Source: Candidatus Freyarchaeum deiterrae (GTDB taxonomy: Archaea > Asgardarchaeota > Jordiarchaeia > Jordiarchaeales > Jordiarchaeaceae). Taken from it: 64,000 nt of DNA. Shown here piece by piece: positions 2,843 to 21,601 of this stretch (its first letter is position 1; every line of letters begins with the position of its first letter). The notes below the pieces were generated by a model. It had not been told where the DNA came from, did no database searches, and saw nothing but the letters and a program-made list of their open reading frames with translations. The DNA lies in assembly GCA_037305845.1 (NCBI GenBank), contig CP147778.1:1856001-1920000 (forward strand), written 5' to 3'. A program made the position numbers and the translations under genes.

Positions 2843-4522
2843 TTGGAGGAATGCAAAATTCCAGTAATAACTCTGAATTGTAATCGAATGAGTGAGCTAT
2901 TAAGAAAAAAAATTAGTTCTGACGAACTCGAGAAAATAGTTCCATGGCTCGGAGTTGACATAGAGGAAAAAACAGAAAATTATGTCAAAATTGAGTACAA
3001 TCCTAATCGACCAGACTTCTCAAGCCAAGAAGGAATTGCACGCGCTCTGAGAGGATTAATGGAAATAGAAACCGGGCTCCCAAAATACAGAACTTCTGAG
3101 AGCGGCATAACCGTAAAGGTGGATCCTGCCATAGCAGAGATCAGACCATACATAGTTTGCGCGGTTATAAGGAATATTTCATTAAATGATGAAAATATCA
3201 TAGAACTCGTAGGTATGCAGGAGGATTTACATTGGGCCATAGGAAGAAATCGGGTGAAAGCGTCTATAGGCATTCATGACCTCGCTAATGTTAAACCGCC
3301 TTTTGAGTATCGGGCTGTAGATCCAGAAGGAATAAAGTTTATCCCTCTTAATTGGGCGGTAGAAACTACTCCTCGAGAAATTTTAGCTAAACATCCAAAG
3401 GGTTTAGAATACGCTCACATAATGGAAGGAAAGTCCAAGTACCCAATTATCACCGATGCCAATAATGATGTTTTATCATTTCCCCCCATAATTAACGGAA
3501 TTTTAACTCAACTAACCGAAAAAACAAGAAATCTTTTCATAGACGTTACTGGAACCACAATGAACCATATTAATATCGCCTTGAACATTCTTGTAACAGC
3601 ACTGGCGGAAGGAGGGGCCAAAATAGAGAGTGTCAAAATTGAATATCCTGACGAGATAATTAAAACACCAGACCTCACCCCTCAAACTTGGTCTATACAC
3701 GCTGAGTATGTTAACCGTTTACTAGGACTAAAACTTTCAACAGAAGAAATTATGCATTGCTTAGAAAAAGTGCGCATGGGCTCTAAATCAGAGAATGGTG
3801 AAATAAAATTACTAGTTCCTGCTTACCGCTACGACATTATGCATGAGGTGGACTTCGTTGAGGAAGTAGCCATAGGATACGGATTATATAATTTAACACC
3901 CACTCTTCCCAAAACGGTAACAATCGCAAAAGTTCATCCCTATCAAAAACTATCAAATTTAGTAAGACGTATACTAACAGGATTAGGATTTAATGAAGTA
4001 GTTAACTTCACACTAACAAATATTAAAGAGCATTACGAATATATGCGGACTAAAGGCAATCCGATAGAATTGCTTAACCCTGTAAGCTCAGAATACAACA
4101 TGGCAAGAGACGCCCTACTACCCGGGCTAATTAGGACTCTTAGAATCAACAAACATGAGGCATTACCCCAAAAAATTTTCGAGGTGGGTGATGTTGTTTT
4201 TTATGATCCTGAAGCTGAAACCAGCGCTACCCGCAAACTGAACGTCGCAGTGGCAATAACCGATACCGAGATAGGATTTACCGATATAAAAGCTACCTCC
4301 GAGGCCCTGTTAAGGGAGCTGGGATGTGAACAATGGAAATTCCAGCCTACATCCCTTCCAAGTTTCATTGACGGACGGACAGCCCTAGTGGAAGCAGATG
4401 GAAAAGTAATAGGCCATGTTGGTGAGATTCATCCAGAAGTATTAAATAATTTCAACTTGGAATATCCAGTAGGGGCTTTTGAATATAGTCTTGAATCTTT
4501 CTTGGAGAGGATTAAAAAATGA
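2843..4522 (+). CDS. pheT: Phenylalanine-tRNA ligase beta subunit (true start possibly ATT at 2858)
   Basis: NPNRPD, QEDLH..IGRNR, RYDIMHEVDFVEEVAIGYG, GEIHPEVL; follows pheS. Confidence 0.96.
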   Translation: MEECKIPVITLNCNRMSELLRKKISSDELEKIVPWLGVDIEEKTENYVKIEYNPNRPDFSSQEGIARALRGLMEIETGLPKYRTSESGITVKVDPAIAEIRPYIVCAVIRNISLNDENIIELVGMQEDLHWAIGRNRVKASIGIHDLANVKPPFEYRAVDPEGIKFIPLNWAVETTPREILAKHPKGLEYAHIMEGKSKYPIITDANNDVLSFPPIINGILTQLTEKTRNLFIDVTGTTMNHINIALNILVTALAEGGAKIESVKIEYPDEIIKTPDLTPQTWSIHAEYVNRLLGLKLSTEEIMHCLEKVRMGSKSENGEIKLLVPAYRYDIMHEVDFVEEVAIGYGLYNLTPTLPKTVTIAKVHPYQKLSNLVRRILTGLGFNEVVNFTLTNIKEHYEYMRTKGNPIELLNPVSSEYNMARDALLPGLIRTLRINKHEALPQKIFEVGDVVFYDPEAETSATRKLNVAVAITDTEIGFTDIKATSEALLRELGCEQWKFQPTSLPSFIDGRTALVEADGKVIGHVGEIHPEVLNNFNLEYPVGAFEYSLESFLERIKK

Positions 4523-8884: not shown

Positions 8885-9769
8885 TTGCTTGAAAAAACAG
8901 TAATACCCGGTCCTAGCTCACAGCTCTTGGGACTACGCCTCGCAAGGTGTTTAAAGTCAAGCGTGGTTCCTATAGAGTTTAAGACTTTCCCAGATGGAGA
9001 AAGATACATTCGGATAAAGGAAGAACCAAAGAATGGTCATGCTGTTGTAGTTCAGTCTACGATACCGCCTGATCCCAATCAATGTATAATTGAACTTTGT
9101 TTCATACTTGAAACTCTTAAGGAAATAGGTTTGGAGAAAATCACTGCAGTGATTCCCTATTTCGCTTACGCCCGCCAAGACAAAAAATTTCTACCTGGCG
9201 AGGCCGTAAGTGGAAAGATAATTTGCGATATCATACAGAACGCTGGGGCTGATGAAGTAATAACTGTGGATATTCATAGCAAAAGAATTTTAGAAAATTT
9301 CAAAATTCCCATAAGAGATGTTAGTGCAGTTCCTCTGCTTGGGGAATACTTGAACAATTTTAAACTAACTAACCCCTTAATTATTTCCCCAGATGAGGGA
9401 GCGATTGAAAGGGCTAGAACTCTTGCGGTTTTCATGGATGCTGAATACGTTACGTTTACTAAATCCCGGGATAAGCACACAGGTGAAATTGAAATATTGA
9501 TTAAAGAAATCGATGTTGCTAATCGCGATGTAGTTATAATAGATGACATTATCAGTACTGGCGGAACTATGGCGAGTGCGGTTGAAATCGCTAAGAGTCA
9601 GGGAGCTGCTCGAGTTTATGCAGCATGTACTCATGCTGTTTTGGTGGGTGATTCCAGATTTAAAATTCTTAACGCAGGGGCGAATGAGATAATCGGAACT
9701 GACACAGTTCCCAGCGATGTGAGTTTCGTATCTGCGGCTCCTATTATTGCTGAGGCGCTAAAAGAGTGA
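8885..9769 (+). CDS. prs: Ribose-phosphate pyrophosphokinase
   Basis: FPDGE, PYFAYARQDK, IIDDIISTGGT. Confidence 0.96.
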   Translation: MLEKTVIPGPSSQLLGLRLARCLKSSVVPIEFKTFPDGERYIRIKEEPKNGHAVVVQSTIPPDPNQCIIELCFILETLKEIGLEKITAVIPYFAYARQDKKFLPGEAVSGKIICDIIQNAGADEVITVDIHSKRILENFKIPIRDVSAVPLLGEYLNNFKLTNPLIISPDEGAIERARTLAVFMDAEYVTFTKSRDKHTGEIEILIKEIDVANRDVVIIDDIISTGGTMASAVEIAKSQGAARVYAACTHAVLVGDSRFKILNAGANEIIGTDTVPSDVSFVSAAPIIAEALKE

Positions 9770-19984: not shown

Positions 19985-21601
19985 TCAGGTACCCTCAGCC
20001 CAACCATGAATATACGCATCCTGCTCTGGAGTCAGAACATCCAACTTAAGACCCATAGCCGCGCACTTTAATTGAGCCACAGTATTATCAATCGCTTCGG
20101 GAATATCCAAAACAACACTGCCCATCTTAGACAAAGACTCCCTGTTCTTGACAATATACTCTACCGCCAAAGCTTGGTCTGAGAAGCTCATGTCCATAAC
20201 CTTACCAGCCACATGCATAGTAAAAACTCCCAAAGGTGTTGGTTTATTGTGGGATGACATTTTTTGATTTGACTCAGTATCCCTCTGCTTAACACTTCTA
20301 CATAATGGTGTTAAGGGAGAACTAGAAATACTGGTCCACAATCCGCCACCACAGCAAGTTCACACATCTAGAAGTTTTAATTAAACATGTGGTCACTGGG
20401 GTGCCCCTCTGCACAAGCTAGATTCACAAGTCTGCCTTGTCCGAGTAGGTAAATTTTTCTTCCGTCTTTCATTGTGTATTCGTCGACTAGTGGTCTCAAC
20501 TCTCGTTTGCTGACACTGAGTTTCTCTAGGTCCGGTATGTTTATTTCGACATTGAAGTGCCCAGTGTTACAAATTGTCGCCCCGTTTTTGAACTTCTTCA
20601 TATGCTCTGCGTTAACCACGTTTTTACAGCCCGTAGCTGTGACGAAGATGTCGCCTACCTCAGCGGCTTCTATCATGGGCATCACATCGAATCCCTCAAG
20701 TGCAGCCGTTAGCGCTCTGTGTGGGCTAATCTCGCAGATGATAACTCTTCTGGCGCCTAGTCCCTTGGCTCTTATCGCTACGCCTCTACCGCAATGACCA
20801 AAACCAGCGACTACAAAAACTTTACCTGCTATAAGATCCGCTGTTGCTCTTAGTATGCCGTCGATGGTGCTTTGTCCGGTTCCCCACAGGTTATCAAATT
20901 TGGGCGCAAACACTTCAGCGTTTACGTTTCCCATTTTGTGGGGGTGTCGTTAGTGGCTAAAATCGGATAGAGTAATACATTATCTTTGGCCATAGCCCTC
21001 AACCGAACAATTCCGGCCATATGTTTAATAAAAACTCTCAGGGGCATTAATGATTTAACATATGGATTCCGGTCGTGGTTTCTTCGGCTCCGGCCCATAC
21101 GGTGTCTGCCCAGTCTTTTTTTTCTCCTAGGATTTTTTTGACTATTTTTATTTCTTCTCCTGTTTCTCCTCTTTTCAGTTTGATGAGTGTTGATACCAGG
21201 TCGGCGCCGTCGTCCAGAGTAATGTTGGGTTTCGCTTTGATTACGTTGGCTATTGCTCTGTAGTAGCCTTCGTGGTCCATTCCTTTCCAGCCGTAGGTGG
21301 ATATGCCTTCTTTTACCAGAGCTGCGACGACGTGGTCCTGTGTTGATAGTGGATTAGAAGCGCATAGGTAGACCTCAGCGCCGCCTGCTTTCAGGGTTTT
21401 CGCGAGCACCGCGGTCTCCTTGGTTAAGTGGAGGCATGCTCCCACTTTCACGTTTTTGAGTGGTTTCTCTTTGGTGAATCTTTGTTTTACTTGCATGAGT
21501 ACCGGCATGTGTGCTTCTGCCCATTCTATTGTGCTCTGTCCGCTTGGCGCCAATTTCATGTCTTTGACTTCGTATTTTTCTCCTTTTTCTGTTTGTGACA
21601 T
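19985..21601 (-). CDS. ahcY: S-adenosylhomocysteine hydrolase, four exons: complement(join(19985..20202,20394..20898,20928..21010,21067..21601)), 446 aa
   Basis: Spliced product has [75 protein letters not shown]; exons total 1341 nt. Confidence 0.93.
20203..20393 (-). other. 191-nt BHB intron 3 of ahcY
   Basis: CCAG-TG^A-CCACATG...CATGTGG-CTGG-TA^A; restores GHPSEVMD. Confidence 0.88.
20899..20927 (-). other. 29-nt BHB intron 2 of ahcY
   Basis: TGGG-AA^A-CGTAAACGC-TGAA-GTGTTTGCG-CCCA-AA^T; restores KWEFDN. Confidence 0.9.
21011..21066 (-). other. 56-nt BHB intron 1 of ahcY
   Basis: CCGG-AA^T-CCATATGTT...AACATATGG-CCGG-AA^T; restores ETTTGIVRL. Confidence 0.9.

Follow-up and report, generated by a model that had tools for sequence, protein, structure and literature searches.

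The ahcY gene of an Asgard archaeon in four pieces: three predicted BHB introns and an 83-nt internal exon

How a single enzyme can be produced from a gene that is broken three times is the question raised by ahcY, which predicts S-adenosyl-L-homocysteine hydrolase and lies on the minus strand at positions 19985-21601 of the window (the whole stretch of DNA that was analysed, 64 kb long), in four pieces split by three inserts. Only one ahcY is present in the genome, a single contig of 3.58 Mb. Public collections hold the gene only in truncated form, here as a 185-aa 'adenosylhomocysteinase' call (window 20377-20934, minus strand), and the calls in relatives of the same genus are 245 aa long. 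Because ahcY is listed in the form of truncated fragments, pathway reconstructions can wrongly score such genes as broken or missing.

Gene arrangement and the spliced product

The pieces and the predicted introns between them, in the order of transcription, are listed below, with cut sites marked ^.

Exon 1, 21067-21601, minus strand: 535 nt starting with the ATG at 21601; 3' end ...ACC GGA A; Pfam AdoHcyase.
Intron 1, 21011-21066, minus strand: 56 nt; BHB CCGG-AA^T ... CCGG-AA^T, with a 9-bp inner stem CCATATGTT/AACATATGG.
Exon 2, 20928-21010, minus strand: internal micro-exon of 83 nt; 2 nt of an Ile codon, then VRLRAM...TKWE.
Intron 2, 20899-20927, minus strand: 29 nt; BHB TGGG-AA^A ... 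CCCA-AA^T.
Exon 3, 20394-20898, minus strand: 505 nt, ending AEGHPS; NAD-binding domain; Pfam AdoHcyase_NAD.
Intron 3, 20203-20393, minus strand: 191 nt; BHB CCAG-TG^A ... CTGG-TA^A.
Exon 4, 19985-20202, minus strand: 218 nt including the stop codon; EVMDMSF ... GWAEGT; Pfam AdoHcyase, C-terminal part.

Joining 21601-21067, 21010-20928, 20898-20394 and 20202-19985 gives a sequence of 1341 nt that encodes 446 aa with no internal stop codons. The conserved ETTTG, K-x-x-FDN and GHPS motifs are all found in this product, which carries both the AdoHcyase and the AdoHcyase_NAD domain; the Pfam matches are to AdoHcyase (21050-21601, E = 2.8e-40), AdoHcyase_NAD (20380-20949, E = 2.1e-53) and the C-terminal part of AdoHcyase (19988-20359, E = 4.5e-8). 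An earlier note on this DNA had claimed that introns 1 and 2 together isolate the exon at 20928-21010 and that the open reading frame track misses it altogether. The spliced reading, open over all 446 aa, bears out the first claim, and the second is accounted for by the longest ORF across exon 2, which is 58 aa when start codons are required and so falls below the usual 60-aa cut-off. The 27-aa peptide of exon 2 aligns to orthologues, and all seven of its PDB matches are adenosylhomocysteinases, at residues ~163-203 (E = 0.07-0.13, marginal for a peptide of 27 aa).

Each of the three introns is 2 modulo 3 in length, so that retention of any one of them shifts the ahcY frame, and retention of intron 2 introduces an in-frame TAA two codons past the 5' splice site. 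Judged from its sequence, the enzyme is very probably producible solely from a spliced mRNA. In a collection of 5.8 billion proteins, a 70-aa peptide across both of the junctions of exon 2 has no match above 91% identity, the top match being partial. The best full-length relative of exon 3 in the same collection is 77% identical and intronless, and no spliced-form product of this lineage was found there; the fragments of 92-294 aa that the collection holds are genomic-type pieces only.

Fold, splice register and conservation of intron 2

On the minus strand the region of intron 2 reads ...ACAAAA-TGGG-AA^A-CGTAAACGC-TGAA-GTGTTTGCG-CCCA-AA^T-TTGAT, and as RNA ...ACAAAA-UGGG-AA^A-CGUAAACGC-UGAA-GUGUUUGCG-CCCA-AA^U-UUGAU. 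Its predicted elements are as follows.

Central helix, exon strand, 20933-20930, minus strand: TGGG, from the Trp and Glu codons.
5' bulge, 20929-20927, minus strand: AA^A.
Inner stem, 20926-20918 with 20913-20905, minus strand: 9 bp, 2 of them G-U.
Loop, 20917-20914, minus strand: TGAA.
Central helix, intron strand, 20904-20901, minus strand: CCCA.
3' bulge, 20900-20898, minus strand: AA^T.

Two 3-nt bulges on opposite strands are thus separated by a 4-bp helix, which is the BHB (hBHBh') arrangement. The flanking helices are an inner h' of 9 bp and a weak outer exon-exon h of 4 bp (CAAA/UUUG), one pair of which is mismatched in 2 of 9 sequences (G002 and G009). The earlier note had placed a 29-nt intron with a TGGG/CCCA helix, 9-bp stem and TGAA loop at 20899-20927. 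That description is exact, and the minimum-energy fold from RNAfold agrees with it, showing the 3' bulge as a 1x2 internal loop and not as a clean 3-nt bulge. Over 61 nt the BHB is the minimum-energy fold (RNAfold/ViennaRNA, -16.0 kcal/mol, z = -3.2), 0 of 200 shuffles folding as well, and for a 47-nt sequence z is -4.2. In a 271-nt context spanning introns 1 and 2, the 13 core pairs of the intron 2 BHB have probabilities of 0.80-1.00 and the intron 1 BHB has a pair probability of 0.34; both BHBs forced together lie 1.2 kcal/mol above the minimum-energy fold. The chance that a random 29-nt insert would carry CCCA and a contiguous 9-bp stem in register is estimated at ~1e-6 to 1e-5 at 39.5% G+C.

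No Rfam match was obtained anywhere in the 64-kb window, no family reaching its gathering score there, and ARAGORN detected no tRNA in it. The insert, at 29 nt, does not resemble group I or group II self-splicing introns, which have a ribozyme core of hundreds of nt. Nearly all tRNA genes of this lineage are intron-interrupted according to published work, and standard tools may therefore miss RNA genes that are interrupted.

By the canonical rule, each bulge of intron 2 would be cut behind its second base. Excision there joins the exons as TGG GAA^TTT GAT (W-E-F-D), with the predicted exon 2-exon 3 junction ...ACAAAATGGGAA^TTTGATAACCTG..., and the mature sequence would read TKWE^FDN. The same residues are found across the exon 2/3 junction in uninterrupted orthologues (G006, G007 and G010 of the sister family, and G033), and among 120 full-length homologues TPTKWEFDN is the most frequent form of the K-x-x-FDN motif, in which the earlier note had placed the intron. 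Because of AA/AAA repeats, the DNA sequence fixes the cut only to within 2 nt (GGGAA^A...CCAAA^T); the three possible placements lead to one identical mRNA. A different register of the same length, 20902-20930 (29 nt), was rejected: it goes against the rule for BHB cuts and would give TKWK-FDN, with a WK that is absent from all homologues.

All 6 genomes of the genus have intron 2 at one and the same site. So do 7 metagenome contigs and, in the sister family, a single genome (G009); the other four genomes of G009's family lack it. When the intron 2 sequence pattern was scanned across 400 Asgard genomes, with a further pattern scan of metagenomes, it matched in ahcY in just these seven of the 400. 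Five pattern matches outside ahcY (L125-L127, L129 and L136) were taken as chance, the one in G186 being stop-free and divisible by 3 in length. Related ahcY proteins carry the database labels Jordarchaeales or Jordarchaeaceae. Nine distinct variants of the intron were distinguished, with lengths of 23, 27, 28, 29, 30 and 34 nt that include all three classes modulo 3, and an in-frame TAA or TAG lies within the intron in all seven species genomes, where the frame was read. TGGG-AAA...CCCA-AAT is invariant across all 9 distinct intron-bearing sequences. The loops are free to vary (TGAA, TGAAATGAA, CCA, CACCC and others), and the hairpin of G009 is unrelated (CCTCCC-TTTA-GAGGGG). The proposed register pairs 95.9% of the alignment cells, and sliding the 3' partner lowers this to 12-45%. 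One pair shows a compensatory change from G-C to A-U and is the sole pair changed on both sides; the observed paired fraction is reached by 21 of 500 shuffles and, with sequences this closely related, the support from covariation is modest. Intron 2 is conserved in position and fold, and not in length, frame or inner sequence.

Two explanations do without splicing. In translational bypassing, the ribosome would hop over intron 2 as it does in phage T4 gene 60, and the stop codon just past the take-off region, followed by a hairpin, speaks for such a hop. However, matched take-off and landing codons that would give TKWEFDN are absent, and the sole repeated codon (AAA...AAA) would drop W-E, which no homologue lacks. 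The gap to be crossed also ranges from 23 to 34 nt, and introns 1 and 3 (56 and 191 nt) would need a hop each, making bypassing barely credible. Alternatively, ahcY may be a split gene, the inserts being spacers and the pieces being translated separately from internal ATG or GTG codons and assembled without covalent joining. An in-frame ATG or GTG is present in or before the insert, giving V-F-K-P-K-FDN in relatives, and the 185- and 245-aa fragments called 'adenosylhomocysteinase' in public annotation would suit this arrangement. So would the position of the break, close to the hinge that joins the catalytic and NAD domains in SAH-hydrolase structures. The amino acids specified by the insert nevertheless vary in sequence, length and frame, whereas the RNA fold and cut sites are conserved. 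In this genome four polypeptides would be required, one of them only ~30 aa, and by eye there is no GGAGG-like ribosome-binding site ahead of the internal starts. As separate translation also leaves unexplained why canonical BHB cuts at three sites give the exact orthologue sequence, a split gene is considered very unlikely, and removal of intron 2 from the pre-mRNA is the preferred reading.

Selection on the exons was assessed against the other members of the genus. For each ahcY exon dN/dS is 0.02-0.17 against every genus member for which synonymous divergence is estimable (0.02-0.07 for exon 3). Synonymous sites are close to saturation throughout, and those of exon 2 reach it in 4 of the 5 comparisons. 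Purifying selection on exons downstream of the stop codon indicates that those parts are still translated, and its presence on all exons excludes a decaying gene or an assembly error. Taken literally the gene does have stops and frameshifts, as a pseudogene or assembly artefact would if a frameshifting insertion had formed a hairpin by accident. However, 7 species assembled independently, and 7 metagenome contigs, have the insert at the same site, dN/dS is low, and the genome is a single contig, leaving this explanation with as little credibility as bypassing.

Splicing machinery and proposed pathway

The host encodes both a splicing endonuclease and the ligase RtcB (E = 1.3e-171). The endonuclease EndA is represented by two paralogues of 211 and 198 aa, which are 32% identical and both have N-terminal and catalytic domains.

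EndA paralogue, genome C1:1921033-1921278, ~1 kb past the right end of the window: catalytic Tyr/His/Lys kept (by eye).
EndA paralogue, genome C1:1733162-1733422: catalytic His missing (by eye).

From these features, the two paralogues probably correspond to an alpha/beta heterotetrameric endonuclease. An (alpha-beta)2 EndA with a broad-specificity loop has been described in Asgard archaea [PMC5829648], and a second paper reports that, in the complete genomes of Freyarchaeia and Atabeyarchaeia, 92-95% of the tRNA genes have introns [PMC11291895].

Cleavage by EndA at both bulges of intron 2, followed by ligation by RtcB, is the best-supported reading of the locus and, on the sequence data, one that can be held with high confidence. 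In the pre-mRNA, the last exon bases TGGG would pair with CCCA near the 3' end of the intron, and the 9-bp hairpin would stack on the resulting helix, leaving 3-nt bulges, one per strand, 4 bp apart. EndA, probably as the alpha/beta heterotetramer, would cleave after the second base of each bulge. RtcB would then join the exon ends, and would probably circularise the 29-nt intron, to give TGG GAA^TTT GAT and restore the orthologue-like TKWEFDN. With the removal of introns 1 (56 nt) and 3 (191 nt) the mRNA would be composed of four exons, the second of which, at 83 nt, is bounded by BHB sites on both sides. We infer that cleavage and ligation take place in vivo, together with an order of intron removal and the retention of the 83-nt exon between cuts. 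If this is true, then after four cuts the 83-nt exon would have to be held and ligated at both ends with neither a spliceosome nor a tRNA scaffold.

A further possibility is that the BHB is cut and the ends are not rejoined, the insert acting as an endonucleolytic element that lowers ahcY expression or marking a gene that is heading for decay. EndA should cut any accessible BHB, and ligation of mRNA halves held together by ~4 bp may be inefficient. Yet ahcY is present as a sole copy, all of whose exons downstream of the cuts are under strong purifying selection, the insert persists through the genus and into the sister family, and RtcB is present. Cleavage that is not followed by joining therefore seems even less probable than a split gene, if not quite as remote as bypassing or an artefact, and cleavage with ligation remains the preferred reading.

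Pairing between the exons themselves was also noted. A segment at the 5' end of the micro-exon, UUGUUCGGUU (minus strand, 21000-21009), can pair over 10 bp with AACCGGACAA of exon 3 (20872-20881, codons for GTGQS) at -13.7 kcal/mol. In 10 relatives without intron 1, the corresponding segments give -4 to -9 kcal/mol. This 10-bp duplex between exons 2 and 3 could tether the cleaved 83-nt exon, the observation being post hoc with a chance expectation of ~0.1.

A genome-wide census of coding BHB introns based on ORF continuity began from ~428,000 loose BHB candidates. With open-frame filters, for example, 1322 were retained in the true register and ~1320 at registers shifted by 1-2 nt, the counts being equal across registers because ordinary gene boundaries pass the filter. 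For stems of at least 7 bp the numbers were 207 and ~186, and the excess of ~20 is not significant.

Age of the introns and comparison with known systems

The three introns differ in distribution. There is no break at residue 178 in any relative, and the metagenome relatives are contiguous there. Intron 1 is accordingly found only in this genome, and the 83-nt micro-exon is a recent, lineage-specific state. By its distribution, intron 2 would date back at least to the ancestor of the genus, and it is possibly order-level in age because G009 also carries it. The sister group of G009 in the ahcY tree is formed by the four genomes of genus g2, which are intronless. Given this placement, a single gain of intron 2 followed by a loss is as parsimonious as two separate gains. 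The reading in the earlier note, of a BHB intron that defines a micro-exon, stood in its sequence-level predictions and is refined in two respects: intron 2 is old while intron 1 and hence the micro-exon is young, and the cut carries the ambiguity of up to 2 nt described above.

The third site is more variable. Metagenome contig L131 is the sister of this genome in the ahcY tree (support 99/99) and carries a 34-nt intron 2 with the same stem. L131 also has a 188-nt intron (L131:2941-3128) that is clearly homologous to intron 3 (z = 10.6, 0 of 500 shuffles) and sits 14 nt upstream of the intron 3 site, with the BHB GCGC-AG^...GCGC-AG^. The central helix fits its own exon context in each, CCAG/CTGG for intron 3 versus GCGC/GCGC in L131. 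A 31-nt BHB intron in L130 (~8927-8957) occupies a third position, 7 nt upstream of the intron 3 site, and the distant Asgard genomes G021 and G035 have BHB introns of 34 and 31 nt exactly at the intron 3 site (L024 ~2001-2034 and L030 ~2001-2031). The GHPS/EVMD region of ahcY is an intron hot spot. In further metagenome lineages 'adenosylhomocysteinase' is called at 173-223 aa, suggesting that intron 2 occurs together with a site-3 intron in more lineages. From these distributions, intron 2 was likely gained first and intron 1 last, with the site-3 introns in between.

Introns 1 and 3 have similar ends, which agree in 11 of 14 bases on the 5' side and in ~22 of 30 on the 3' side. A global alignment of the two scores z = 3.0, a value reached by 2 of 500 shuffles. 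It is suggestive, though not conclusive, that intron 1 may be an internally deleted copy of intron 3 inserted ~600 nt upstream in ahcY. When the genome was searched by blastn-short with introns 1, 2 and 3, just the introns themselves matched, so they form no repeat family within this genome.

Direct repeats of 4-7 nt that begin with a palindromic tetramer flank several introns (CCGGAAT twice, GCGCAG twice and CTAG twice). They were seen at the following places.

Window 21011-21073: repeat-flanked intron.
L131 ~2935-3134: repeat-flanked intron.
L030 ~1994-2034: repeat-flanked intron.

Intron 2 (TGGG/CCCA) is outside this palindromic-repeat pattern. A palindromic target duplicated around an inserted hairpin would make a BHB automatically, and this is a possible route of intron gain. 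More broadly, ahcY may be undergoing stepwise and ongoing colonisation by endonuclease-type introns, with an old intron 2, a family of ~190 nt at sites 14 nt apart in two sister genomes, and a species-level gain of intron 1, a scenario that we put forward tentatively and with some doubt. If it is true, a multi-exon gene architecture with mobile introns, served by a protein-only splicing machine, has evolved independently in this Asgard lineage.

The closest known counterpart is the pre-mRNA intron in cbf5 of Crenarchaeota, reportedly the subject of work by Watanabe in 2002 and Yoshinari in 2006. It is a BHB intron and occurs in Desulfurococcales and Sulfolobales [Yokobori 2009, PMC2738675]. 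Like the ahcY introns, it interrupts a coding sequence, restores the frame when removed and has been gained and lost among relatives, and it is removed by a hetero-oligomeric tRNA-splicing endonuclease, as predicted for ahcY. The two cases differ in gene and phylum, ahcY belonging to Asgard archaea (Freyarchaeia/Jordarchaeales), and in number, with one intron in cbf5 and three in ahcY together with an 83-nt internal exon between BHBs. They also differ in the type of evidence, as cbf5 splicing has cDNA proof whereas the ahcY introns are known from DNA.

Multi-intron tRNA genes are found in Thermoproteales and in Freyarchaeia/Atabeyarchaeia, according to two papers [PMC11291895; bioRxiv 10.64898/2026.10.13.758758]. 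They share with ahcY the motif, presumably the enzymes, introns of ~20-35 nt, several introns per gene, non-canonical positions and the organism group. The ahcY introns, however, interrupt an mRNA, where no tRNA fold keeps the exons together, and they are constrained by the reading frame rather than by tRNA structure. Protein-gene introns are not mentioned in the available passages of PMC11291895, and the Asgard intron papers found deal with tRNA genes only. BHB sites in archaeal rRNA precursors and rRNA introns involve the same endonuclease and ligase chemistry and yield circular excised products, but there structural RNAs are released or interrupted, whereas the product of ahcY must be a translatable ORF.

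In eukaryotes, unconventional mRNA splicing of HAC1, XBP1 and bZIP60 is carried out by IRE1 together with RtcB or Trl1, and the XBP1 intron is 26 nt long. This system resembles ahcY in being protein-catalysed, non-spliceosomal splicing of an mRNA, with a short intron, a change of frame and, in metazoa, an RtcB-type ligase. The IRE1 nuclease, in contrast, reads twin stem-loops and not a BHB, and it acts as a regulated stress switch and not as a constitutive requirement. We know of no evidence of common descent between these introns and BHB introns.

In the literature searched, cbf5 is the sole archaeal coding sequence documented with a BHB intron [PMC2738675]. New at ahcY are the three introns that one gene carries, the internal exon between two BHB sites and a datable order of gains. 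The gene provides a concrete substrate for the splicing fidelity of a protein-only system on a multi-exon mRNA, and allows the gain, movement and loss of introns to be studied in the closest prokaryotic relatives of eukaryotes. In ahcY, a central housekeeping enzyme of an Asgard archaeon would need three BHB excisions, one of which is conserved across the genus and beyond.
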